Shown here: positions 1 through 34,855 of the stretch, in pieces | Layout: each line of letters begins with the position of its first letter | Position numbering within the stretch: position 1 is the stretch's first letter | From: Bacillota bacterium | Lineage (GTDB): Bacteria; Bacillota; Clostridia; Oscillospirales; CAG-272 | Assembly: GCA_029219205.1 (NCBI GenBank) | Contig: JAQXSY010000030.1 | Span: 1 to 58,998 of the forward strand | Direction of reading: 5' to 3' | DNA: 58,998 nt | Program-made: the position numbers and the translations under genes | Notes under the pieces: model-generated | Told to the model about the DNA's origin: nothing | The model's database searches: none | The model's input: only the letters and a program-made list of their open reading frames with translations

Positions 1-440
1 CCGTCGGGATGATGCCAGTCCATAAGCGAACTGTAAAATCCAATCTTAAGTCCGAATTCACGGCAGGCATCGACAAATTCACGAACCAAATCACGTCCGC
101 AGGCATTATAAGAATTGAACGGATTCGTTTTGCTGTTCCAAAGAGAAAAGCCCTCGTGATGTCTTGTCGTCAAAACCATATATCTCATACCTGCCGCTTT
201 TGCCTGTGCGGCCCACTCGCGGCAGATTCCCTCGCGGGGATTGAACTTGTCTGCAAGCTGCTCATATTCGTCCTTAGGTATGCATTCGAATGCACGGGCC
301 CATTCGTGCCTGCCTAAAACAGAGTAAAGGCCGTAATGAACAAACATTCCGAAACGCGCTTCTCGAAACCACGCCATGCGCTGTTCACGAGTGTCTGCAA
401 GCTGTTTTTCGTAATCGAGTTTTGAAAGTATTTTTGTCAT
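1..440 (-). CDS. alpha-L-fucosidase, GH29 family (N-terminal ~146 codons; 3' end runs off the window)
   Basis: Absent from the ORF track because it is open at the window edge. Reverse-strand ATG at 438-440. Translation MTKILSKLDYEKQLADTREQRMAWFREARFGMFVHYGLYSVLGRHEW...MRYMVLTTRHHEGFSLWNS carries the GH29-type FGMF-H-G-YS and HH(E/D)GF motifs and parallels the full-length paralogue at 13064-14347. Confidence 0.8.
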   Translation of the reverse strand, partial: MTKILSKLDYEKQLADTREQRMAWFREARFGMFVHYGLYSVLGRHEWARAFECIPKDEYEQLADKFNPREGICREWAAQAKAAGMRYMVLTTRHHEGFSLWNSKTNPFNSYNACGRDLVREFVDACREFGLKIGFYSSLMDWHHPD

Positions 441-3332: not shown

Positions 3333-4761
3333 GCTCTGTACAAATATAAGAACCGCCGCCGTGCTTTGTAACGTCAGTCATCGGTATTCCAAGCTCCTTT
3401 GAAATAAGCTCCATAACCGAAGGAGAACAAAATCCCCCCTGGCACCGACCCATGCCGCTTCTTACACGCCTTTTTATCGCGTCAAGACTTTTTGCCGGCG
3501 GATTCATGCGTATCGCCTCAACGATCTCACCCTCGGTTATGCCCTCGCAGCGGCATACTATTCGGCCGTATTCCGGATGCTTTCGTATAATTTCGTTTTT
3601 TTCGTCGTCGGTCAGCGTTTTAAAATGATCCGGCGCATGCCTGATCGGATTGAAGTTTTCATTGACAATAAGCTCAAGCCCGTCTTTTTTCAGCAAATCA
3701 ACGATATATTCCGCAATCGCAGGAGCCGAAGTAAGTCCCGGCGACTCAATTCCAGCAGCGTTCACAAAACCGGGCAGCGGATTTGTAAGAATGAAATCGC
3801 CCGTATCTCCGACTGCGCGAACACCGCAGAAAGTGGTTATTACGTTACGGAACGGAAGCCGTTCCGAATAACGAACGGAAGCGGCGGCCATTTCCGCAAG
3901 CCCCGCCGCCGTCGTCGATTTATCATCGCGATCCTCGGTATCGTGAGCCGTCGGACCTAGCAGAAGGTTGCCGTCAGCCGTCGGAGACACAATTATTCCT
4001 TTACCCATCTTTGAAGGAGCCCGGAACACTGTGCGGTTAAACATACCGCCGAATTCACGGTCAAAAATATAGTATTCGCCGCGTCGGGCAGTTATTTTAA
4101 ATGATTTGTCGCCGAAAAGCGCGGCAACAATGTCCGCATGTGTTCCGGCAGCGTTGACCACACGCTTTGCATACACCTTTTCTCCGCTTTCTGAGATCAG
4201 AAGAAAGCTTCCGTCCTCCTGTCTTTCGGCTGAAACAAGCTTATAACCGCATTTTAGCTCAACGCCGTTGTCCATTGCGTTTCCGACTGCGGCTATCGTA
4301 AGCCCGTATGTGCAGGTAATTGCGCCGGTCTGCGCCCAAAGTGCCCATTCTGCCTGCGGAACAAGATTCGGTTCAAGCTTGTGAAGCTCCTCCCGCCCGA
4401 TTATACGCATATCCGGAACTCCGGTCTGTTTTCCGCGGTCATAAAGCATTTCGATAACCGACTTTTCGTCCTTATCGCCGATAACAAGCGAGCCGTTGCG
4501 GCGGTATTTTACGCCAAGCTCCTTTGTAATCCGCTCCATCATCTGAGAGCCGCGTAAATTCAGCTTCGCCTTAAGAGTGCCGGGAATTGCATCAAATCCG
4601 GCGTGAACTATCGCACTGTTTGCGCGCGAAGCTCCGTTGGCAACGTCCGCTCCTTCTTCAAGCAGTATTGTGCTGACCTTATATTTTGCAAGCTCCCGCG
4701 CTATAAACGCTCCGGTTACGCCCGCACCTATTACAGCGACGTCATATATTTTTTTACTCAT
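3313..4761 (-). CDS. FAD-dependent glycerol-3-phosphate dehydrogenase/oxidase-like protein with C-terminal BFD-like [2Fe-2S] domain
   Basis: 482 aa with the FAD motif VAVIGAGVTGAFIARELA and a C-terminal CRCEGITEGEI...GRCQGGFC motif typical of BFD-like iron-sulfur domains. Confidence 0.85.
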   Translation of the reverse strand: MSKKIYDVAVIGAGVTGAFIARELAKYKVSTILLEEGADVANGASRANSAIVHAGFDAIPGTLKAKLNLRGSQMMERITKELGVKYRRNGSLVIGDKDEKSVIEMLYDRGKQTGVPDMRIIGREELHKLEPNLVPQAEWALWAQTGAITCTYGLTIAAVGNAMDNGVELKCGYKLVSAERQEDGSFLLISESGEKVYAKRVVNAAGTHADIVAALFGDKSFKITARRGEYYIFDREFGGMFNRTVFRAPSKMGKGIIVSPTADGNLLLGPTAHDTEDRDDKSTTAAGLAEMAAASVRYSERLPFRNVITTFCGVRAVGDTGDFILTNPLPGFVNAAGIESPGLTSAPAIAEYIVDLLKKDGLELIVNENFNPIRHAPDHFKTLTDDEKNEIIRKHPEYGRIVCRCEGITEGEIVEAIRMNPPAKSLDAIKRRVRSGMGRCQGGFCSPSVMELISKELGIPMTDVTKHGGGSYICTELGKGGK

Positions 4762-4787: not shown

Positions 4788-5876
4788 TTATTTTGCTTCC
4801 GCGCTTTCTTTTATAATTGATATGACCTTATCCCAAAGAATTCCGGTCTCTATCTCGTCAACTCCAAGATACTGCTCAAGCTCGCCGGGAGATGAAAATC
4901 CTTCTCCGTATTCTTCATAATATGCGTTGAGCCCGTCGGTGTATTCGTCGTCGGAAAGCGAAAGACCCTCGGCGCGGATTATCGCCTGAAGCACAAGACG
5001 TTCCTTGACTTCCTTTTTTGCGTATTCTTCAAGTTCGTCCATGAATTGTTCCAGCGTTTTTCCGTATGATTCAAAAACGAAATTTTCAAGACTCTTTCCG
5101 TAATATGCGGCATACTTTTTATACTCGGTGTAACGGCGGTCCTTTGAGGAATCGACTTCCTTCTTCGGATATTCAATTACCTCTGCATTGTCAACAGCCA
5201 TCGCCCAAAGAGTTGAAAGATTTTCTGCTTCCGCATCCGCGATTCTTGCTTCGGAAAGCTGCTTTTTTACTTCCCCGCGGTATTCGTCCGCGGTTTTGGC
5301 GGTTTCTGACAGCTCTGCCGCCGTCTCGTCGGTAAGCTCAGGTATAACGGTTGTGTTTATCGAAACGACCGTTATGCGGAATGTTATCGTTTTCCCGGCG
5401 AGCAGGCTCGCTTTTTCAACTGAATCAATAGTATAGTCTTCGGGGAAATCCACCGTAATCACAATCTCATCGTCCTTAACGGCGCCGATAAGCTTTTCAC
5501 CGAGATCGCTCAGCATGGAGCCTTCAACCGTTTCTCCAACCGGGAAAAGCACGTCGTTTGCCGCAAATTCCGGAATTTCGGTTTCGTTATCGTATACCTT
5601 GTAGGAAATACGCGCGCTGTCGCCTTTCTGAGCCGCGCGTTCGGTAATCTCAACTGACTTCGGTATTCCTTGAAGCTTTTCGTTTATATAGCTTTCAACA
5701 TCTTCGTCGCTTACATCTAAGGATGCGGGAGTATAAACAAGGCCCTTATATTTTCCGAGAACTATGTATTTTTCAAGATTTGCGTTTTTGTAACCATTCC
5801 AACCGTCTGAGCAGGAGCAGAAAACGGATGTCAGCAATGCGATAATGAGTATCGAGCAGATAATTTTCGTCTTCAC
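4788..5876 (-). CDS. probable lipoprotein with trigger-factor/PPIase-like architecture
   Basis: 362 aa. Signal peptide MKTKIICSILIIALLTSVFCSCS has lipobox-like cysteines. The middle region (GDSARISYKVY...VITVDFPEDY) and acidic C-terminal helices resemble the trigger-factor PPIase and C-terminal domains. Confidence 0.6.
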   Translation of the reverse strand: MKTKIICSILIIALLTSVFCSCSDGWNGYKNANLEKYIVLGKYKGLVYTPASLDVSDEDVESYINEKLQGIPKSVEITERAAQKGDSARISYKVYDNETEIPEFAANDVLFPVGETVEGSMLSDLGEKLIGAVKDDEIVITVDFPEDYTIDSVEKASLLAGKTITFRITVVSINTTVIPELTDETAAELSETAKTADEYRGEVKKQLSEARIADAEAENLSTLWAMAVDNAEVIEYPKKEVDSSKDRRYTEYKKYAAYYGKSLENFVFESYGKTLEQFMDELEEYAKKEVKERLVLQAIIRAEGLSLSDDEYTDGLNAYYEEYGEGFSSPGELEQYLGVDEIETGILWDKVISIIKESAEAK

Positions 5877-6125
5877 TTTTTCGTTCCTTTTTCATGTTTA
5901 AGAATTCATATTATATATTTTACAATATAAATATATACCACATTTCGGCCCCGATTTAAAGCCAGTGGTTGTTAATTTACAATTTGGTAAAATAATTTAA
6001 TATTTTATTCACACATTCAGGGGCGCTTTGACTGTATCTAAAAATTAATAAAATACTGTTTATATAGCATCAGATATATGATATAATGTATATAAAATCA
6101 ATCTCTGCGGGAGGAAACGTCGCGG

Positions 6126-7942: not shown

Positions 7943-8929
7943 ATGAATGTTGACAATTCTGCGGCTCTCAGCAGTGAAGATATTGAAAAAGTCTACTCTC
8001 TGGCGTCGTCGATAATAGCCGAAATTGAAAAAGCAGTAACCGGAAAACATAAGGAAATAGTTCTGCTGGTAACGGCGCTTGCGGCAGGCGGTCACGTTCT
8101 CATTGAAGACGTGCCTGGAGTAGGAAAAACAACGCTCGCCTCGGCGCTTGCCAAAGCAGCCGGACTTGATTTCAGACGCGCCCAGTTTACGCCTGACGTC
8201 ACTGCCTCCGACATAACCGGATTCAATATTTACAACCGTTCGACCGAAAGCTTTGAGTTTCGCGAGGGGCTGGTCATGACCAACATACTGCTTGCCGACG
8301 AAATCAACCGCGCGTCCCCGAAAACACAGTCGAGCCTGCTTGAGGCAATGGAGGAAAACAGCGTTACGGTCGACGGCAAGACCTATCAGATACCGGATCC
8401 GTTCATGGTAATAGCTACTCAGAACCCGGCAGGTTATATCGGAACCTATCCTCTTCCCGAGGCGCAGCTCGACAGATTCATGATCCGTCTGACGATCGGA
8501 TATCCGTCGCCAGAGGATGAAACCGAGATCATACGAGCGCGCCGCACCTCAAATCCGCTTGATTTTGTTCAACCGGTAAGCTCGCGCGGCGTTATTAAGC
8601 TGATACGCGCCGTTGCACAGCATATTAAAGTCAGCGAATCGCTTTGCAGGTATATGGTCGATCTTGTCTCCTGTACGAGAAACGACAAACTGATTGCGCT
8701 TGGAGCAAGTCCGCGAGCAACTCTAATGCTTATGCGTATGTCACAGGCATACGCATTCATGCAAAAACGCGAATACGTTGTGCCCGAAGACATCGCCGCA
8801 GTTTTTGACTGCACAATAGCGCACCGCATCATTCTCTCTCAGGAGGCAAAACTTAACCGCATCGGCGCCGAGAAAGTGCTCGACTCAATCTTCAAACGCA
8901 TAAAAGTTCCCTTCGGTATCCGTCAATGA
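7943..8929 (+). CDS. MoxR-family AAA+ ATPase
   Basis: 328 aa with Walker A GVPGVGKT and Walker B LLADEINR, and the overall MoxR/AAA_3 layout. Confidence 0.92.
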   Translation: MNVDNSAALSSEDIEKVYSLASSIIAEIEKAVTGKHKEIVLLVTALAAGGHVLIEDVPGVGKTTLASALAKAAGLDFRRAQFTPDVTASDITGFNIYNRSTESFEFREGLVMTNILLADEINRASPKTQSSLLEAMEENSVTVDGKTYQIPDPFMVIATQNPAGYIGTYPLPEAQLDRFMIRLTIGYPSPEDETEIIRARRTSNPLDFVQPVSSRGVIKLIRAVAQHIKVSESLCRYMVDLVSCTRNDKLIALGASPRATLMLMRMSQAYAFMQKREYVVPEDIAAVFDCTIAHRIILSQEAKLNRIGAEKVLDSIFKRIKVPFGIRQ

Positions 8930-10194: not shown

Positions 10195-12972
10195 ATGAAA
10201 AAAGACGTTTATAAAGAATTAACTGAACAAGACGAATATATATGCCTTCCCGAGGAAAGATCCGTAAAAAGGTTCTCTTTTGCAGCCGGGTATTTTTTGC
10301 GTTGGCTGACGGCTTTTGCGGCGGTGCTCGGTCTGACTTTATTTTTCTGCGACGCTTTCAGAATCGAAATCAACCCGGTTATATCGATTGATTTTTCCGC
10401 AATTACGGCAGCGTCGGCAGCCGCGCTGTGTTTCGGTTTCCGCGGCGTCGCCGTTTGGCTCGGGTCAACGCTTTTGAGTCTGTTTATTACAAACGGATTC
10501 AGTGCGAAAGGTCTGGTAAAAAACGCATATTACGGGGTAATACAACTGTTCAACATCGTCTCGGAACGAATTTCGAAAGGCGGTTTCGCCGCGCCGGATG
10601 TGTTTCCGATTGACGATATTCCCATCGAAAAAGCCACGTTGTTTGCGGTTTTTATCCTCGCGGCGCTGCTTTCGCTTGCGATCGTACCGTTTACTGTCAA
10701 GCGCGCGCGGTTAATTGTTCCTTCAGTCGTTATCGCGTTTATATGTATTCTTATTTTCACATATAATCTGAGCGAATTTAATCTTGGATTTGCAATAATT
10801 ATCGCGGCAATATGCGGAATGTTAGTCTTGCGGAGATACGACTCAATATACATCATCAAAGGAACCTTTACGTCGCCGCAAGTTTTATCGGGAGGAGGAA
10901 AATCCGCTGTCGCAGCAATGCTTGCGGCGGCGATTGCAGTCTCCGTACCGGCAGCGGTAATTAAAGAGCCTCTTGGTGAAATTGACTTGATAAAAAAACC
11001 GATTGAACTCGCGCGCAACCTCCTGACCATGATAATTTCGGAAAAAGCGACGGATATTGAACTGATAAATGCGGGAATAAGCTCAAATTTCATGTCAAAG
11101 CGCACAAGCTGGGCGTCCGACCGAAACTTTGCCGGAGAAAAGATCATGGAAGTCCGTTCCGACAGCGGATTTCCGGTATATCTTCGCGGCTGGGTAGGCG
11201 GTTTCTTTGACGGAAACAACTGGAGCGCGGCAATACCGAAAGGAAATCTGCTTTCAGCGGAAGCTTTGAACTATTCCTACGAATTTTACGACGGATTCAC
11301 GCCTGACATTTTCACATACAGCTTTGCGGAATCGCTGACGCAAAACAGAACAAACACGCTTGAAACGCTGGGTTATAAGCGTTCAAAAATACAGATAACA
11401 ATGTTATCGCGGGAAGACACCACCGTATTTTTGCCCTCGGTTTTCGATCCGGTTACCGGGATAGTATTTCCCGAAACGGACGACAGAGAAGCATATTCGT
11501 TTTTTTATGAGGGTATGATCACATCAAAGCTGCCGCTGAAGCAAAAAATATACGCCGCCTCTGCACTGATCCCGACCGGCGACCTTTGGAGCAGCTATAA
11601 CCAGGTTATTGATAAAATCGATGAATACAGCAACAATCTGCTTCTTATCGACCGTTTTTACACAATATATAAGATGAGAGGACCAACATACGGTCTTAAA
11701 GAATTTTCAGCCGATCTGCGCGCCGAACGAACTGCGGCCTACCTCGGCGGCGAAATCGAAAACGACATTTACGCCTATTTGACAGAAAAAAACATTTCCG
11801 TACTAATCCGTTTTATTGATATGACGGATGCGCAGAAAGAGGACTTCTACTTTCGGAACATTGAACTGAGAAACAAATACGAGACCGCAATCAAAACATG
11901 GTTCGGCTACACGGAATTTCCCGAAAGCGAAATTGTCCGCCGCGCCGCGGAATCCGCAATAGGCGCCGCATCTGAAACGGATCACGAAAATATTTCAACT
12001 ACGCTTTACGCGATCCGGTCGGTAATAGAATACCTTTCCGAAAATTGCCGCTACTCGCTTACGCCGGTTAAAGGCGACGACAACTCGCTTACCGCAATCG
12101 AATCTTTTCTGAGCGAAACCAAGGAGGGCTATTGCGTACAGTTTGCGTCTGCCGCAGCGGCGATGCTCAGATACCTCGGGTATACCGTCAGATATGTTGA
12201 AGGCTATGTCGCCGACGGCTTCAAACTCATAAAAGATGAATCCGGAAAAGAAATATATACATCAACCGTCACCGACGAAAATGCGCACGCATGGATTGAA
12301 GTATATATAGACGGAATGGGCTGGCGCCAATTTGAAACAACGCCCCGTTCATTTGAGCCGTCAATTAAAGATACGGAAACAGCGGAAACAACCACAGGAG
12401 CTCCGGACACATCAGCTCCGGTTATCGAAACGACAGCGCCAAAGGAAACAACAGCCGCCCCCGCTGTTCCCAATCCTCCGGACGACAAACAAAGCGGCCC
12501 ACGTGTGCTTGTCATTGCGGCGGTAATTATTGCGTCAGCCTTAACGGTATTTCTGATAATACGAAGAAAAAACAGCGAGGAACGCTTTAAAAAGCTTTGC
12601 CGCGCCGCAAAATCAGGCGCTTTGACCGAAGCTGAGACACTTAAGCTCGGAAAGAAACTTGCGAAAAAGGCCTACCGTTCATTCATCGCGCTCGGTGTAA
12701 ACCCGGCGCCGGGCGAGCTTCCGGTTGACTATCTGAAGCGAGTCGATTCCACGCTTCATAAGCTGAGAAGCTCCGGAAACACTGCCGAAAAGAACAATTT
12801 CCGCGCAAAAGACGGATACCGCCTGCTTGAAAAAGCCGAGTACGGTTCAAAGCTGACGAGAGACGAGCTCTGTTCGCTTTCCGTCTATGCCTTTGAATGC
12901 AGAAAAGAGGCCGGTCGATTGCTTAAAGGCTTCAGACGGTTCTTTGAAAAATACGTCGCACTTTCAATATAA
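10195..12972 (+). CDS. transglutaminase-like polytopic membrane protein (TgpA-like)
   Basis: 925 aa with a multi-TM N-terminus and a transglutaminase core (EGYCVQFASAAAAML, NAHAWIEVYIDGMGWRQFETTP). A Thr/Pro-rich linker, a further TM helix and a cytoplasmic tail follow. Starts 3 nt after the DUF58 stop. Confidence 0.88.
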   Translation: MKKDVYKELTEQDEYICLPEERSVKRFSFAAGYFLRWLTAFAAVLGLTLFFCDAFRIEINPVISIDFSAITAASAAALCFGFRGVAVWLGSTLLSLFITNGFSAKGLVKNAYYGVIQLFNIVSERISKGGFAAPDVFPIDDIPIEKATLFAVFILAALLSLAIVPFTVKRARLIVPSVVIAFICILIFTYNLSEFNLGFAIIIAAICGMLVLRRYDSIYIIKGTFTSPQVLSGGGKSAVAAMLAAAIAVSVPAAVIKEPLGEIDLIKKPIELARNLLTMIISEKATDIELINAGISSNFMSKRTSWASDRNFAGEKIMEVRSDSGFPVYLRGWVGGFFDGNNWSAAIPKGNLLSAEALNYSYEFYDGFTPDIFTYSFAESLTQNRTNTLETLGYKRSKIQITMLSREDTTVFLPSVFDPVTGIVFPETDDREAYSFFYEGMITSKLPLKQKIYAASALIPTGDLWSSYNQVIDKIDEYSNNLLLIDRFYTIYKMRGPTYGLKEFSADLRAERTAAYLGGEIENDIYAYLTEKNISVLIRFIDMTDAQKEDFYFRNIELRNKYETAIKTWFGYTEFPESEIVRRAAESAIGAASETDHENISTTLYAIRSVIEYLSENCRYSLTPVKGDDNSLTAIESFLSETKEGYCVQFASAAAAMLRYLGYTVRYVEGYVADGFKLIKDESGKEIYTSTVTDENAHAWIEVYIDGMGWRQFETTPRSFEPSIKDTETAETTTGAPDTSAPVIETTAPKETTAAPAVPNPPDDKQSGPRVLVIAAVIIASALTVFLIIRRKNSEERFKKLCRAAKSGALTEAETLKLGKKLAKKAYRSFIALGVNPAPGELPVDYLKRVDSTLHKLRSSGNTAEKNNFRAKDGYRLLEKAEYGSKLTRDELCSLSVYAFECRKEAGRLLKGFRRFFEKYVALSI

Positions 12973-15493: not shown

Positions 15494-15540
15494 AAAATCC
15501 CGGATCCTTTTTTTAAAGATCCGAGATTTTTTATTTTTTT
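15494..15540 (+). terminator. rho-independent terminator
   Basis: 13-bp stem AAAATCCCGGATC / GATCCGAGATTTT with one mismatch, followed by TTATTTTTTT. Sits between convergent genes. Confidence 0.65.
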
Positions 15541-15574: not shown

Positions 15575-15835
15575 TTACAAAATCAGTATAACAAGTGCCG
15601 CAACAAAAATTATGATCGCAGCAACAACCGAAAAAAGTGCCAGAGGTTTATTCTGTTCACGGTTCTGAAACGCCTGTATGAGCAGTTTGACACCCAAAAG
15701 CGGTTCAAAGACATAAACGGCATTTTTCCATATACCCGCGATTTGCAGCACAACCAGAATTATTATAATCCCGGAGCAAACTATATTGCAAACATTCAAT
15801 ATTCGTTCAGTCGTTTTCGCATCGATGCTTTTCAT
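15575..15835 (-). CDS. small two-TM membrane protein, unknown function
   Basis: 86 aa with two hydrophobic helices. Strong RBS AGGAGG 6 nt before the ATG. Lies 109 nt downstream of the ligase with no terminator in between. Confidence 0.55.
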   Translation of the reverse strand: MKSIDAKTTERILNVCNIVCSGIIIILVVLQIAGIWKNAVYVFEPLLGVKLLIQAFQNREQNKPLALFSVVAAIIIFVAALVILIL

Positions 15836-15944
15836 GACAACCTCCTGAAAATCAAATCATGATTTACACAGCACATTGATGGAGTCCCGATATCTGCCGA
15901 CATCCTGCCTTTGGCGCACAAACTTCCGATTAAGAGTCTTTTTT

Positions 15945-17579
15945 TTAATTTGTGGTCTGCTTTTCAACAAGTCTTCCGCCGCAGTATATTTCGCGCAAGC
16001 GCGGTTTTTCTATCTTACCTGTGGGATTCCGAGGCACATCCGCAAAAAAGATCTTTCTCGGGCGCTTGTATCGAGGAAGCGCCATACAGTATTCGTTTAT
16101 CTCATTTTCGTCTGCCTGCTTGCCGTCCTTAAGCGAAATAATCGCGGCTGCGATCTCTCCCAGGCGTTCGTCGGGAAGTCCGATGACCGCAACGTCCTTT
16201 ACCTTCGGATTTTCTCTGATAAAATCCTCAATCTGTACCGGATACAGATTCTCCCCTCCGGTTATAATTACGTCCTTTTTCCTGTCAACAAGATAAATAA
16301 AGCCATCCTCGTCAAGCTTTGCCATGTCGCCGGTATAAAGCCAACCGTCGCGCAGAATCTCGGCAGTAGCCTCCGGATTTTTATAATAACACTTCATTAC
16401 CCCGGGGCCCTTCACAGCAAGTTCTCCAACCTCGCCGCAGACAGTTTCTTTACCGTCGGAACCGACGATCTTCGTCTCCCAAAGATACCCTGCTTTGCCT
16501 ATCGCGCCAACCTTATCGATGTTTTCTATTCCGAGATGAACACAGCCCGGACCTATCGATTCGGAAAGACCGTAATTAGTATCGTAATCCTGATTCGGAA
16601 AAACTGTTTTCCATCTCTTTATCAGACTCGGCGGCACCGGCTGCGCGCCGATATGCATAAGACGCCACTGATCAAGCCGAAAATCTTCAAGCCGAAGTTC
16701 TCCGCGATCTATGCTGTCAAGAATATCCTGAACCCACGGAACCAAAAGCCATACTATTGTAGCGCGCTCCTGAGATACGCAGCGCAGCACCCATTCCGGC
16801 TTAACTCCGCGAAGAAGCACAGCTTTCGAGCCGGAAATCAGACTTCCGAACCAGTGCATCTTGGCTCCGGTGTGATACAGCGGAGGTATGCACAGAAAGA
16901 CGTCGTCGTGCGTCTGTTTGTGATGATTCTGCTCCGTACGGCAGGACGACACAAGTGCCAGATGCGTATGCAGAATAGCCTTCGGAAATCCTGTCGTTCC
17001 GGAGGAAAAGTAGATCGCCGCGTCGTCGTCTTCCGTAAGCTCAACTGCCGGCGCGGCACTTGAACAGTATGTAACCATACGATCGTAGCTGTCCGCATAC
17101 TCCGGTACGTCCCTGCCTACAAAAAATATGTTTGTAACAAGCGGAATATCGTTCTTAATCTGATCGACTCTTCCGGTAAACTCAGGCCCGAATATCAAAA
17201 CCGAAGAATCGGATAATCCGAGACAAAATTTGATCTCGTCAGCCGTATACCGGTAGTTTAACGGCACCGCCAACGCTCCGGTTTTAAGTATTCCGAAGTA
17301 TATCGGCAGCCATTCAAGGCAGTTCATAAGCAGAATGGCAACTTTGTCTCCCTTTTTTACGCCTCTCGTAAGCAGCAGGTTGGCAAAGCGATTTGCCTTT
17401 ATATCGAATTCGCGCCATGTCATTTCACGTCTGTATTTCCCGCCCGGGACAGATTCAATCAGGTTGTATTCGCTCCATGTCAGAGGATGGTCCGGATGAA
17501 ACTCCGGGTTCACTTCAACAAGCGCCGTTTCGTCGGGATACAGCTTTGCGTTTTTTTCGAGAAAATCCGTAATAACCAT
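15945..17579 (-). CDS. AMP-forming acyl-CoA synthetase/ligase (class I adenylate-forming enzyme), substrate unknown
   Basis: 544 aa with AMP-binding motif YFSSGTTGFPKA plus YGLSE, WLYTGDMA and the C-terminal PRNPTGKIEK lysine motif. Confidence 0.9.
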   Translation of the reverse strand: MVITDFLEKNAKLYPDETALVEVNPEFHPDHPLTWSEYNLIESVPGGKYRREMTWREFDIKANRFANLLLTRGVKKGDKVAILLMNCLEWLPIYFGILKTGALAVPLNYRYTADEIKFCLGLSDSSVLIFGPEFTGRVDQIKNDIPLVTNIFFVGRDVPEYADSYDRMVTYCSSAAPAVELTEDDDAAIYFSSGTTGFPKAILHTHLALVSSCRTEQNHHKQTHDDVFLCIPPLYHTGAKMHWFGSLISGSKAVLLRGVKPEWVLRCVSQERATIVWLLVPWVQDILDSIDRGELRLEDFRLDQWRLMHIGAQPVPPSLIKRWKTVFPNQDYDTNYGLSESIGPGCVHLGIENIDKVGAIGKAGYLWETKIVGSDGKETVCGEVGELAVKGPGVMKCYYKNPEATAEILRDGWLYTGDMAKLDEDGFIYLVDRKKDVIITGGENLYPVQIEDFIRENPKVKDVAVIGLPDERLGEIAAAIISLKDGKQADENEINEYCMALPRYKRPRKIFFADVPRNPTGKIEKPRLREIYCGGRLVEKQTTN

Positions 17580-17618
17580 TTTTCTTCATCTTCCTTTTGT
17601 TGATTATTCCCGGTGGAC

Positions 17619-17905
17619 AAAAAAACGCCCCCAGCTTTTTGCTGAGGGCGATATATATCGCGGTACCACCTCAAACTGTCCGTTTGCTCGCACATACGAA
17701 CCTCTGCGGGTACAAAAATCCCGAATTCCCATACCCCACCGCTGTAACGCGCGGACGCGCCGCCGCCTACAGCGCCGTTTGTCGGGCGTTTCGGAACGGA
17801 ACTATCCGGATGTATTCAAAAAAACCGTTTCCGCGCCTCTCACCATCCGGCAACTCTCTGTGGGACGTTGTTTTTTCTACTGATTCCGGGTCATTGTCTT
17901 TCTTA
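17619..17905 (-). promoter_or_regulatory. T-box riboswitch leader, apparent Tyr (UAC) specifier, with intrinsic terminator at 17619-17650
   Basis: Read on the minus strand. Stem I elements are AGTA (17878-17881), AGAGAG (17854-17859), GGTGAGAG (17837-17844) and GAA-TAC-A in the specifier loop (17811-17817). The Stem I base pairs CCGGA (17885-17889) with TCCGG (17806-17810). The T-box motif GGTGGTACCGCG is at 17659-17670. The antiterminator is TTGAGG[TGGTACC]GCGAT-ATAT-ATCGC-CCTCAG. It competes with the terminator CGCCCTCAGC-AAAAA-GCTGGGGGCG plus a run of seven T. Confidence 0.85.
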
Positions 17906-17911
17906 AAATAG

Positions 17912-17940
17912 ATGATAACATATTTTTTCAGATATGTCAA
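17912..17940 (-). promoter_or_regulatory. sigma-A type promoter driving the T-box leader
   Basis: On the minus strand: TTGACA (17935-17940), a 17-nt spacer, then TGtTATCAT (extended -10, hexamer at 17912-17917). Confidence 0.75.
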
Positions 17941-19749: not shown

Positions 19750-20238
19750 TTACAGATTCATTGCGATTGTTCCGGATCTGATCATATCAAGGATTCCAAA
19801 TGGCTCAAACGCTTTTATAACGCCTTCGAGCTTCTGTTCTCCTCCGGAAACTTCGAGAATAACGCAGTTTTCCCTGACAGACGCAATTCTCGCGTCCATT
19901 GCATCGGCAAGACGTATGATGTCGGCGCGTTCTTCAGGTTTTGCCGCCGTTTTCAGCAGCATAAGCTCGCTCGACACGCATTCGACGTCGTCCGCCGTAA
20001 ATATTGTTATTACCTCCATTATCCGTCCGAGCTGCCTGACAAGAAGGTCAAGCTCGTCTTTTGTGCTTATTACGGATATTGTCAGGTGATACACCTCGCG
20101 GCGTTTCGTTATACAGGTAACAAAGCTTTCGATATTGTATCCGCGCCGGGTAAACAAACCGGATATACGTGAAACAACGCCCGGATTGTTGTCGACCCGG
20201 GCAACAATTATATGTTTTGAAACACCCGGCTTTATCAT
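19750..20238 (-). CDS. ilvN: acetolactate synthase small (regulatory) subunit-like ACT protein
   Basis: 162 aa with the N-terminal ACT motif VDNNPGVVSRISGLFTRRGYNIESF and a C-terminal ALS small-subunit-like half. No catalytic subunit is adjacent. Confidence 0.78.
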   Translation of the reverse strand: MIKPGVSKHIIVARVDNNPGVVSRISGLFTRRGYNIESFVTCITKRREVYHLTISVISTKDELDLLVRQLGRIMEVITIFTADDVECVSSELMLLKTAAKPEERADIIRLADAMDARIASVRENCVILEVSGGEQKLEGVIKAFEPFGILDMIRSGTIAMNL

Positions 20239-32497: not shown

Positions 32498-33556
32498 ATG
32501 GCAAAGGTATTAATGAAGGGTAACGAAGCCATAGCCGAGGCAGCCATCAGAAGCGGCTGCCGGCTTTATTTCGGATACCCGATCACACCTCAGACCGAGG
32601 TTGCGGAATATATGGCAAAGCGTATGCCGAAGATCGGCGGCCTGTGTCTTCAGGCCGAGAGCGAAATTGCGGCAATCAACATGGTACTCGGAGCCGCGGC
32701 TTCCGGAGCAAGAGCGATGACGTCGTCGTCGTCTCCCGGTATAAGCCTCAAGGGCGAGGGAATAAGCTATATGGCCGGATCGGACGTTCCGTGCCTTATT
32801 CTGAACGTTCAGCGCGGAGGTCCCGGACTCGGAGGCATTCAGCCCGCGCAGTCGGACTATAATCAGGCTACAAAGGCCATGGGCCACGGCGACCTGCGGC
32901 TTGTCGTATATGCTCCTTCAACGATACAGGAAACAATCGACCTCACGAGGCGCGCATTTGACACCGGAGACAAGTTCCGCGTTCCCACAATGCTTCTTGC
33001 GGACGGCGCGCTCGGACAGATGATGGAACCCGTTGATTTTTCCGGAGTCGAGGATGTTATTCCTCCGGAAAAGCCCTGGGCCGCCTGCGGACACGGAGGT
33101 CAGAGAAAAAAGAATATAATCAATTCGCTCTATATCCAGCCCGAAGAACTCGAAAAAATTGTACGCGAGCGTTATGAACGCTACTTGCAGATCGAAAAAG
33201 AGGAGACTCTTTACGAGGAGTATCTCACCGACGACGCCGATATCGTGCTCGTCGCTTTCGGAATTGCAGCCAGAATATGCCGTTCAGCTGTTAATGCAGC
33301 GCGTGAAAAAGGCATAAAGGCCGGACTTTTCCGTCCCATAACGCTTTGGCCCTACCCGAATGCGCCGCTCAGAAAGACCGCAGACAAAACGAAGGCGTTC
33401 CTTTGCGTCGAACTTAACATGGGACAAATGGTAAACGACGTTAAGCTCGCCGTCGAATGCTCAAAACCTGTTTATTTCCACGGACGTACCGGCGGCATGA
33501 TGCCGACTCCGGAGGAAGTTCTCGCGGAAATTGTTAAACTCAAGGAGGCGCTTTGA
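32498..33556 (+). CDS. korA: 2-oxoacid (2-oxoglutarate-type):ferredoxin oxidoreductase alpha subunit
   Basis: 352 aa. MKGNEAIAEAAIRSGCRLYFGYPITPQTE is typical of the POR/KOR alpha N-terminus. Confidence 0.9.
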   Translation: MAKVLMKGNEAIAEAAIRSGCRLYFGYPITPQTEVAEYMAKRMPKIGGLCLQAESEIAAINMVLGAAASGARAMTSSSSPGISLKGEGISYMAGSDVPCLILNVQRGGPGLGGIQPAQSDYNQATKAMGHGDLRLVVYAPSTIQETIDLTRRAFDTGDKFRVPTMLLADGALGQMMEPVDFSGVEDVIPPEKPWAACGHGGQRKKNIINSLYIQPEELEKIVRERYERYLQIEKEETLYEEYLTDDADIVLVAFGIAARICRSAVNAAREKGIKAGLFRPITLWPYPNAPLRKTADKTKAFLCVELNMGQMVNDVKLAVECSKPVYFHGRTGGMMPTPEEVLAEIVKLKEAL

Positions 33557-34311
33557 TTATGGAAAAAATTGTTTTTGAACGTCCGAAATCTCTCTCAGAC
33601 GTACCGCTTCACTACTGCCCGGGCTGTACTCACGGAATTGTTCACCGGCTTGTTGCAGAAGTTATAGACGAACTCGGAGTTGAAGACCGCACCGTCGGAA
33701 TAGCTCCGGTCGGCTGTTCTGTATTTGCATATAATTATTTCGAATGCGACATGATCGAAGCGGCGCACGGACGCGCTCCGGCGGTTGCGACGGGAGTTAA
33801 ACGCGCTCACCCGGACAATATTGTGTTTACATACCAGGGCGACGGCGACCTTGCGGCAATCGGCACGGCAGAAACCGTTCACGTCGGCGCAAGAGGAGAG
33901 AACATAACTATAATCTTCATTAACAACGCCATATACGGCATGACCGGAGGACAAATGGCTCCGACCACGCTTCCGGGTCAGGTAACAACTACATCTCCTT
34001 ACGGACGTCAGATTCCGATACAGGGAAATCCTGTTCATGTCTGTGAAATGCTTTCAACGCTTGACGGAACGGCATTTGCCGAACGCGTTGCGGTTGATTG
34101 TCCAAAGCACGTCATCGCGGCGAAAAAAGCAATAAAGAAAGCTTTTCAGTATCAGATAGACAAAAAGGGGCTTTCGATTGTCGAAGTGCTTTCGACTTGT
34201 CCGACAAACTGGGGCAAAACCCCGAAAGAAGCGCTCGAATGGGTACGCACCGAAATGATCCCGTTCTACCCGCTCGGCGTTTACAAGGATATATCCGGGG
34301 AGGAAAAATAA
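33553..34311 (+). CDS. korB: 2-oxoacid:ferredoxin oxidoreductase beta subunit (TPP-binding)
   Basis: 252 aa with CPGCTHG and the GDGD...NN TPP motif (YQGDGDLAAIG...IFINNAIYGMTGGQ). ATGA-type overlap with korA. Confidence 0.9.
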   Translation: MIMEKIVFERPKSLSDVPLHYCPGCTHGIVHRLVAEVIDELGVEDRTVGIAPVGCSVFAYNYFECDMIEAAHGRAPAVATGVKRAHPDNIVFTYQGDGDLAAIGTAETVHVGARGENITIIFINNAIYGMTGGQMAPTTLPGQVTTTSPYGRQIPIQGNPVHVCEMLSTLDGTAFAERVAVDCPKHVIAAKKAIKKAFQYQIDKKGLSIVEVLSTCPTNWGKTPKEALEWVRTEMIPFYPLGVYKDISGEEK

Positions 34312-34312
34312 T

Positions 34313-34855
34313 ATGGCAACCGCTTCGATACTTCTCGCGGGCTTCGGCGGACAGGGTATTCTGTTCGCTGCAAAGCAGCTTGCAAAATCTGCAATGGACA
34401 CCGGCAAAAATGTAACCTGGCTTCCTTCATACGGACCCGAAATGCGCGGCGGAACGTGCAACTGCGGCGTCGTAATTTCCGATGACGAAATCGGTTCGCC
34501 GATCGTAAACCGTCCCTCCGTTCTTGTAGCCTTCAACATCCAGTCATTCGATAAATTTGAGCCGGCAGTCGTCAAAGGCGGATCGCTTTTCGCCGACTCG
34601 TCTCTGATCAATAAAAAATCAAACCGCACAGACATCGTCTGCCGTTACATTCCTGCCACAGAACTTGCGTCCGAAAACGGACTTACCGGTATGGCAAACG
34701 TGATTATGCTCGGATACATTCTCCGTGAAACCGGAATTTTTGAATATGACGCGTTTCTTCATCATATGATCGACGGAATACCGGCTTCAAAAGCTGCGCT
34801 TATCGAAAAAAACACCAAGGCATTGGCAATAGGATATAATTATTCCGAAAAATAA
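34313..34855 (+). CDS. korC: 2-oxoacid:ferredoxin oxidoreductase gamma subunit
   Basis: 180 aa. ILLAGFGGQGILFAAKQLA is typical of POR/KOR gamma subunits. Confidence 0.9.
   Translation: MATASILLAGFGGQGILFAAKQLAKSAMDTGKNVTWLPSYGPEMRGGTCNCGVVISDDEIGSPIVNRPSVLVAFNIQSFDKFEPAVVKGGSLFADSSLINKKSNRTDIVCRYIPATELASENGLTGMANVIMLGYILRETGIFEYDAFLHHMIDGIPASKAALIEKNTKALAIGYNYSEK

Follow-up and report, generated by a model that had tools for sequence, protein, structure and literature searches.

A tyrosine-specifying T-box leader upstream of an acid-coenzyme A ligase gene in gut and rumen Clostridia, and its possible link to aryl-acetate salvage

The T-box leader and the gene it precedes

The 58,998-nt contig JAQXSY010000030.1 of a Bacillota bacterium (GenBank assembly GCA_029219205.1; Clostridia, Oscillospirales, CAG-272), which was analyzed at its full length and is referred to here as the window, carries on its minus strand a promoter, a leader with the features of a T-box riboswitch, a gene for a 544-aa class I adenylate-forming (ANL) enzyme, and a small open reading frame (ORF), followed by a terminator-like hairpin (Table 1). 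An earlier note, made from the letters of this sequence, had described the leader as a canonical T-box with an apparent tyrosine specifier, had placed an acyl-coenzyme A (CoA) ligase under its control, and had suggested that the ligase might activate an aryl-acetate for conversion to tyrosine. The analysis reported here upholds the T-box and its specifier, finds both conserved in front of orthologous ligase genes, and points to tyrosine salvage from 4-hydroxyphenylacetate as the probable, although far from assured, function of the ligase.

In a permissive Infernal scan, the leader aligned with all 219 positions (1-219) of the RF00230 T-box model at 92.6 bits, with an E-value of 4.8e-21 over 501 nt and 5.7e-19 over the whole window, and no other Rfam match with E <= 0.001 was obtained anywhere in the window. 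A scan of the whole window at the default gathering thresholds of Rfam reported nothing because the leader lies 0.4 bits below the curated gathering score of 93 bits for this family; the empty scan is thus a threshold effect, and the T-box is present. Leaders of orthologous genes score 103.9-114.1 bits in some cases and 91-92 bits in others, and they are preceded by promoters equivalent to that of the window (TTGACA...TGnTATAAT).

Each of the elements expected of a transcriptional T-box can be assigned to the leader. The Stem I helix GAAAAAAC/GUUUUUUU was read directly from the sequence, and the 5' arm of the intrinsic terminator has the segment CGCCCUC in common with the antiterminator, including the 3' arm of the latter. 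The promoter, the AGTA and AGAGAG motifs, the distal element, the helix, the GAA-UAC-A layout, and the T-box sequence named in the earlier note were all recovered at the same positions, the sharing of an antiterminator arm with a strong terminator was borne out by the sequence together with a terminator scan, and the covariance-model alignment placed UAC, rather than any other codon, in the specifier slot. Judged by these features, the leader in the window is a genuine tyrosine-specific transcriptional T-box, which would act by charge-dependent antitermination if it follows the established mechanism of its family.

Table 1. Coordinates of features in the window and, where a locus is named, in related loci.
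Feature	Position	Strand	Basis or detail
Sigma-70-type promoter TTGACA-17-TGtTATCAT	17912..17940	-	11/12 matches, extended -10 TG, top site in the region (promoter scan)
Full T-box leader: Stem I, Stem II, IIA/B, Stem III, antiterminator	17641..17903	-	RF00230 alignment
Stem I: GA (K-turn) motif, AGUA/GAA specifier loop, AGAGAG bulge, GGUGAGAG distal loop	17798..17895	-	Sequence and RNAalifold
AGUA	17881-17878	-	Read from sequence
AGAGAG bulge	17859-17854	-	Read from sequence
Specifier loop GAA-UAC-A	17817-17811	-	Sequence and covariance-model alignment
Specifier codon UAC (Tyr)	17812..17814	-	UAC in codon slot, then A (covariance-model alignment)
T-box sequence GGUGGUACCGCG	17659..17670	-	Sequence and covariance model
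UGGU bulge, predicted partner of tRNA 3' end ACCA	17668-17665	-	Inside GGUGGUACCGCG
Antiterminator GAGG / bulge UGGUACC / GCGAU-AUAUA-AUCGC / CCUC	17644..17672	-	Sequence and covariance-model structure line
Antiterminator 3' arm CCUC	17647-17644	-	Within CGCCCUC
Intrinsic terminator CGCCCUCAGC-AAAAA-GCUGGGGGCG plus U7 (as DNA, CGCCCTCAGC-AAAAA-GCTGGGGGCG plus seven T)	17619..17650	-	10 pairs, 8 of them G-C
544-aa ANL enzyme, regulated gene	15945..17579	-	Pfam domains, core motifs, synteny of orthologues
86-aa ORF, two transmembrane segments	15575..15835	-	109-nt spacer after ligase; sub-threshold Pfam matches only
Terminator-like hairpin closing the transcription unit	15494..15530	-	16 pairs, T-rich tail
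Glycoside hydrolase-like ORF, 587 aa	17959-19722	-	Upstream of the promoter
Acetolactate synthase small subunit	19750-20238	-	NF008864, 138 bits vs 119
Three-subunit 2-oxoacid:ferredoxin oxidoreductase	32498-34855	+	Alpha subunit VorB subfamily PRK07119, 530 bits vs cut-off 399, plus beta and gamma
L126, T-box with UUC specifier	72-308	+	Followed by ligase and IorA
L022, protein of the 344-386-aa group	3352-4386		After the ligase
L048, second-family T-box	8598-8860	+	Covariance model
L050, second-family T-box	11111-11425	+	nhmmer only
L162, second-family T-box	5621-5924		
L163, second-family T-box	5695-5929		
L164, second-family T-box	5648-5889		
L117, Gut-1 RNA RF01706	2274-2347	-	56.7 bits vs gathering score 50

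The regulated gene encodes an enzyme with an AMP-binding domain (PF00501, 6.4e-72) and an AMP-binding_C domain (PF13193, 1.9e-13), in agreement with the class I adenylate-forming acyl-CoA ligase read from the sequence earlier. The core motifs of ANL enzymes (SSGTTGxPK, YGxSE, TGD, the hinge D, and the catalytic Lys, the lysine of the C-terminal PTGKIEK) are invariant across 16 orthologues, and the predicted structure (predicted local distance difference test score, pLDDT, 70.8) has the ANL fold, with leading Foldseek matches at E 1e-44 to 1e-36. The nearest solved or characterized relatives, at 22-33% identity, are FadD13, which is the top PDB match, FadD5, feruloyl-CoA synthetase, the malonyl enzyme MatB, and 4-coumarate-CoA ligase. 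Although 108 NCBIfam models matched, the protein is below the cut-off for every one of them, the top model being the PRK06187 long-chain fatty-acid-CoA ligase subfamily (NF004837; 413.4 bits against a cut-off of 476), and the family is accordingly uncharacterized. A PaaK-type identity was considered and rejected, as no PaaK model is among the best 25 of the 108 matches and the protein has 544 aa compared with ~435 aa for PaaK. Domains and motifs thus mark the protein as a predicted AMP-forming acid-CoA ligase of an uncharacterized family that is very widespread in Oscillospiraceae and other Clostridia.

Conservation of the leader and its surroundings

Relatives of the ligase were found in at least 567 species-representative genomes, of which the best 80 (74-81% identical) were taken, and a metagenome scan contributed 80 further loci; the total of 162 loci analyzed was de-replicated at 95% protein identity to 105 lineages. 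Leaders were detected with an nhmmer profile made from the leaders themselves, since a strict regular expression for the T-box core caught 29 loci only. The profile found a T-box in 36 of the first 80 loci and none in the rest of those 80, in agreement with a relaxed regular expression. In total, 85 of the 162 loci and 47 of the 105 lineages have a T-box immediately before the ligase; the ligase loci that lack it have a plain promoter and a short 5' untranslated region before the gene. Three orthologues without a T-box (L064, L066, and L069; 74-75% identical) come from metagenome-assembled genomes labeled Kiritimatiellia or Lentisphaerales, reflecting either horizontal transfer or mis-binning.

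The specifier, read from the profile-aligned columns that hold the codon of the window, is UAC in 81 of 82 readable leaders, in the contexts GAAUACA (46 leaders), GAAUACC (24), AAAUACA (8), GAAUUACA (2), and AUAUACA (1), and the codon register of the unusual leaders was corroborated by covariance-model alignments. A different specifier had been suspected for a human-gut group because UACA is absent from its leaders, and this was ruled out, as these leaders read UAC-C. The lone exception is L126, where a ligase 72% identical to that of the window and followed by IorA is preceded by a leader with the phenylalanine codon UUC, a specifier switch that stays inside the aromatic amino acids.

Conservation of the codon is accompanied by divergence of the helices that present it. 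RNAalifold, applied to 31 leaders, found compensatory changes at 15 of the 17 predicted pairs of Stem I (for example, C-G/G-C at 18:11 and G-C/A-U at 22:8), while the AGUA...GAA-codon-purine layout and the distal AGAGA and GGUGNRA motifs are invariant across these leaders and the helices around them covary. The bulge is UGGU in all 83 readable leaders, and a terminator hairpin with a U tail directly follows the T-box in 82 of 83. It had been proposed that the UGGU bulge matches the A73 acceptor end of tRNA-Tyr. No tRNA genes were found in the window, and the relevant sequence comes from L074, a locus with the same leader and ligase, which encodes a tRNA-Tyr(GUA) ending in ...UUCUCCC-A-CCA; this tRNA therefore has A73, complementary to UGGU, as proposed, and its GUA anticodon complements the UAC specifier. 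Taken together, the E-value, the recurrence of the same leader before orthologous genes in 85 loci, and the compensatory changes in Stem I place the leader beyond chance.

The downstream part of the window is less well conserved. The 86-aa ORF was described earlier as a two-transmembrane protein gene that follows the ligase without an intervening terminator; the ORF and the spacer are as described, and no terminator-like site was found in the spacer, so the ORF may be co-transcribed with the ligase in the window. A place for it in a conserved unit was rejected, as no significant tblastn match to it was obtained in the 80 related loci. The flanks of the ligase unit consist of unrelated carbohydrate-active genes; upstream of the promoter, a glycoside hydrolase-like ORF is followed by the gene for an acetolactate synthase small subunit. 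A Gut-1 RNA found in L117 is unrelated to the T-box and ligase.

Gene context and candidate function of the ligase

Clustering of the neighbors at 80 genomic loci revealed little conserved synteny except for four partners, all downstream of the ligase and on the same strand: a sodium:solute symporter (SSS; PF00474), the two subunits of indolepyruvate:ferredoxin oxidoreductase (IOR), IorA (TIGR03336, 721-723 bits, equivalog cut-off 651) and IorB (NF005325, 273 bits, equivalog cut-off 230), and, as a separate gene after IorB, a PaaK homologue of 428-440 aa (TIGR02155, 585 bits). IorA, with or without IorB, lies directly 3' of the ligase on the same strand in 45 of the 162 loci and at least 21 of the 105 lineages, usually with PaaK and/or the symporter, and the ligase-IorA spacer yielded no terminator. 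With a T-box, the ligase stands alone in 30 of the 162 loci, with IorA-IorB-PaaK in 19, with the symporter in 17, and with a kinase-like protein in 10; without a T-box, the order ligase-SSS-IorA-IorB-PaaK occurs in 9 loci, and 55 have no recognized partner. The remaining loci are truncated variants of these architectures. T-box and Ior occur together in six lineages, in the order Tyr T-box-ligase-IorA-IorB-PaaK; among them is an abundant Oscillospiraceae lineage of the human gut, with its ligase recorded on at least 1000 contigs. The kinase-like protein (344-386 aa; L022, L026, L031, L033, L036, L048, and L050) follows the ligase at a distance of -40 to +121 nt in 9-10 of the T-box lineages; its C-terminal half is a weak match to P-loop kinases (PRK/uridine-kinase-like), and its N-terminal half has no recognized domain.

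An importer, an AMP-forming ligase, and an IOR constitute the set needed to convert an aryl-acetate to an aryl-pyruvate, and it is for this reason that a salvage route is proposed here. Since induction would occur on uncharged tRNA-Tyr, the direction should be assimilation and the beneficiary tyrosine; an AMP-forming ligase that is induced by starvation and accompanied by an importer also fits assimilation better than fermentation, and the phenylalanine specifier of L126 fits the logic of aromatic salvage. On this basis, the function that we consider most likely for the ligase, with rather more for it than against it, is that of a 4-hydroxyphenylacetate-CoA ligase in a tyrosine salvage route gated by the T-box, the substrate being deduced from gene context.

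In such a route, transcription would start at the promoter, and in the presence of charged tRNA-Tyr(GUA), the leader would fold the terminator and transcription would stop. Uncharged tRNA-Tyr would pair through its anticodon with UAC in the specifier loop of Stem I and through its free ACCA end with UGGU, thereby stabilizing the antiterminator and allowing RNA polymerase to read into the ligase gene. The RNA elements themselves are documented by sequence and comparison, and the switching steps are drawn from established T-box biology. The ligase would then convert an aryl-acetate, most likely 4-hydroxyphenylacetate, to its CoA thioester, IorAB would reductively carboxylate the thioester to 4-hydroxyphenylpyruvate, and transamination would yield tyrosine, such that tyrosine starvation would switch on the salvage of an abundant fermentation acid. 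The co-encoded PaaK would probably serve phenylacetate, with IorAB as a shared module. In the window organism, the ligase alone would be under T-box control, with IorAB, if present, encoded elsewhere.

The earlier idea of an aryl-acetate-CoA ligase feeding reductive carboxylation thus gains from the IorA-IorB, PaaK, and SSS operons, several of them under a tyrosine T-box, and finds no backing in the sequence or fold of the ligase, which do not point to aromatic substrates in particular. Several observations weigh against tyrosine salvage from 4-hydroxyphenylacetate. Homology supports the prediction of an acid-CoA ligase without discriminating its substrate, and the best NCBIfam model, although below its cut-off, is that of a long-chain fatty-acid-CoA ligase subfamily. 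The Ior-linked operons mostly lack a T-box (13 lineages compared with 6 that have one), and most T-box lineages have no Ior inside the available flanking sequence. A promoter-like site is present in the spacer between the ligase and IorA, and IorAB-PaaK may consequently be transcribed independently. The symporter is nearest to PutP and PanF and, by this relationship, could carry an amino acid instead of an acid, and, given that aryl-acetyl-CoA could already come from the PaaK of these operons, a requirement for a second ligase is an assumption. No IorAB was found in the window, and the VorB-family oxidoreductase encoded ~15 kb from the ligase is distinct from it. Finally, L081, a locus with the T-box-type layout on a 614-kb contig, has genes for a type II dehydroquinase and for a fused shikimate dehydrogenase/shikimate kinase at 1-1625, ~8 kb upstream of the ligase, suggesting that the de novo aromatic pathway is at least partly kept and that the organism is not obviously auxotrophic.

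Alternatively, the T-box may work as described and the ligase may act on another tyrosine-related or aromatic acid (for example, phenylacetate, 4-coumarate, 4-hydroxyphenylpropionate, or 4-hydroxyphenyllactate) or on a broad range of aryl acids, with tyrosine control reflecting simply the amino acid that is usually limiting. Feruloyl-CoA synthetase and 4-coumarate-CoA ligase are among the closest solved relatives, PaaK is already present in the same operons, and the 72%-identical ligase of L126 is under a phenylalanine specifier, all in favor of this reading. However, reductive carboxylation of the IOR type accepts only aryl-acetyl-CoA, and IorAB is the recurrent neighbor; no known one-step route leads from an acid with a C3 side chain to tyrosine; and the retention of UAC in all but one of the readable leaders argues for a benefit specific to tyrosine. 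We consequently regard a different aromatic substrate as unlikely, while giving it some weight.

It is less probable still that the enzyme is a general fatty-acid or short-chain acid-CoA ligase whose association with the T-box and Ior is accidental or serves another purpose, such as membrane or energy adaptation during amino acid starvation. The best profile and the top PDB match, FadD13, speak for such an enzyme, and 58 of the 105 lineages lack the T-box, with 39 lacking both the T-box and a recognizable partner gene. Yet a general starvation response would have no need of single-codon specificity, and the tyrosine codon is invariant in the leaders of 47 lineages, apart from the L126 switch, while the stems diverge; the recurrent same-strand partners, moreover, are IorA, IorB, PaaK, and SSS, and fatty-acid genes are not among them. 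The IorAB and PaaK-like clusters of gut anaerobes are usually treated as oxidative (for example, PMC13285125 and bioRxiv 10.64898/2026.01.29.702580), and the operon could accordingly be catabolic, with IorAB oxidizing 4-hydroxyphenylpyruvate from tyrosine fermentation and the ligase running in reverse or recycling CoA. This we consider very improbable, as a T-box activates at uncharged tRNA-Tyr and hence when tyrosine is scarce, the opposite of the signal expected for a breakdown pathway, the AMP-forming reaction strongly favors the thioester, and the co-encoded importer suits uptake of the acid. Among these readings, tyrosine salvage through a 4-hydroxyphenylacetate-CoA ligase remains the one that we prefer.

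A second ligase family and comparison with known systems

Two of the loci, L048 and L050, have a second T-box ~2 kb downstream of the tyrosine-controlled ligase, in front of a gene for a ~765-aa protein with a helix-turn-helix (HTH) domain (HTH_3 or HTH_19), a Cupin_2 domain, and an AMP-binding domain, for which MbcS is the best NCBIfam match. Three further members of this family (65-84% identity; L162, L163, and L164) all have a T-box, with scores of 85-91.5 bits. The isoleucine codon AUC occupies the codon slot in all four of the second-family loci examined by covariance model, the leader of L050 having been detected by nhmmer only, and it sits directly before the conserved closing strand CUUCC, with variable bases before it. 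A UAC reading for the second T-box of L048 was ruled out by the covariance-model alignment and the three additional members. The HTH-cupin-ANL family has thousands of members in metagenome-assembled genomes of Clostridia, and 2-methylbutyrate is a classical rumen precursor of isoleucine.

These leaders suggest that T-box-gated acid-CoA ligases form a class beyond a single case. In its broadest form, which we put forward tentatively and with slightly less than even confidence, the proposal is that T-boxes in gut and rumen Clostridia may control a whole class of carboxylic-acid-CoA ligases, each coupling the charging of a tRNA to the scavenging of the matching acid by ferredoxin-dependent reductive carboxylation (4-hydroxyphenylacetate for tyrosine, phenylacetate for phenylalanine, and 2-methylbutyrate for isoleucine). 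The reductive-carboxylation route has been known physiologically since the 1960s, and if the class-wide proposal is true, it would supply the missing activating enzymes and regulatory logic of that route, as well as a function for two very large enzyme families that lack annotation, of which one is abundant in the human gut.

As an RNA, the leader is ordinary; the interest of the window lies in what it regulates, in how widely this target occurs in Clostridia of the rumen and human gut, and in a pathway assignment that can be tested. The specifier of a T-box is a built-in label for the amino acid served by the downstream gene, and the tyrosine label, combined with the synteny with IorAB, PaaK, and SSS, provides a specific and testable function for an ANL family annotated only as "acyl-CoA ligase." If this function is correct, the activating step and its control would be identified for the synthesis of tyrosine from 4-hydroxyphenylacetate, a route relevant to rumen nitrogen economy and, in the human gut, one that would rival p-cresol formation for their common precursor. 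Acid-activating salvage enzymes would likewise join the synthetases, biosynthesis genes, and transporters of the known T-box regulon, and the isoleucine-specific parallel suggests a general design.

Compared with the tyrS T-box of Bacillus subtilis, the prototype of tyrosine T-boxes, and with other transcriptional T-boxes of RF00230, the leader has the same Stem I with its GA motif, AGUA/GAA loop, UAC-purine, AG bulge, and distal loop, the same Stem II, IIA/B, and Stem III, the 14-nt T-box with UGGU, and the mutually exclusive antiterminator and terminator. What differs is the target, an ANL acid-CoA ligase, which falls outside the aminoacyl-tRNA synthetases, transporters, and canonical biosynthesis enzymes. 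In the Bacillus cereus group, T-boxes control a tyrosine biosynthesis operon and phenylalanine-4-hydroxylase, the only tyrosine T-box targets listed by Wels et al. 2008 (PMC2494555), and likewise switch on an alternative enzymatic route to tyrosine, whereas the route proposed here would involve another enzyme class and would pass from a salvaged fermentation acid to its CoA thioester and on to a ferredoxin-dependent carboxylation. The T-box regulon survey of Wels et al. 2008 never mentions acyl, CoA, or oxidoreductase, and full-text searches returned no papers in which a T-box is linked to a CoA ligase, to phenylacetate-CoA ligase, to IOR together with tyrosine, or to an acyl-CoA synthetase together with 2-methylbutyrate; subscription journals were mostly outside the reach of these searches, which leaves the absence of precedent unproven. 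The view of the earlier note that a ligase is an unusual T-box target is consistent with this searchable literature.

Among acid-activating enzymes, PaaK (TIGR02155) likewise forms AMP in activating aryl-acetates to CoA thioesters, and its gene follows that of IorB in the ligase operons, but the window ligase belongs to a different and longer ANL subfamily, and the two are co-encoded and not alternatives to each other. The HTH-cupin-ANL family resembles MbcS as its best NCBIfam match and differs from it in having an N-terminal HTH and cupin and an isoleucine T-box. We know of no T-box on MbcS. In Staphylococcus aureus, MbcS itself is a 2-methylbutyrate/isobutyrate-CoA synthetase whose products enter branched-chain fatty acid synthesis (PMC10026030), an example of the activation of short acids derived from amino acids.

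The closest parallels to the proposed chemistry are physiological. In Methanococcus maripaludis, aryl acids feed a second route to aromatic amino acids via IOR (Porat et al., as cited in PMC4162585), and rumen organisms make phenylalanine from phenylacetate (PMC7356843); the sequence from aryl-acetate to aryl-acetyl-CoA and, by IOR, to aryl-pyruvate and the amino acid would be the same as that proposed here. Knowledge of that route is physiological, with genetic evidence for IOR in the archaeon; in the loci described here, orthologues of IorA and IorB adjoin the ligase. Neither a dedicated bacterial activating ligase of this ANL family nor tRNA-sensing control was found for the aryl-acid route in the searchable literature. 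The T-box is canonical and the pathway is known from physiology; what is new is the link between them, which gives a proposed function to a very large enzyme family so far without annotation.

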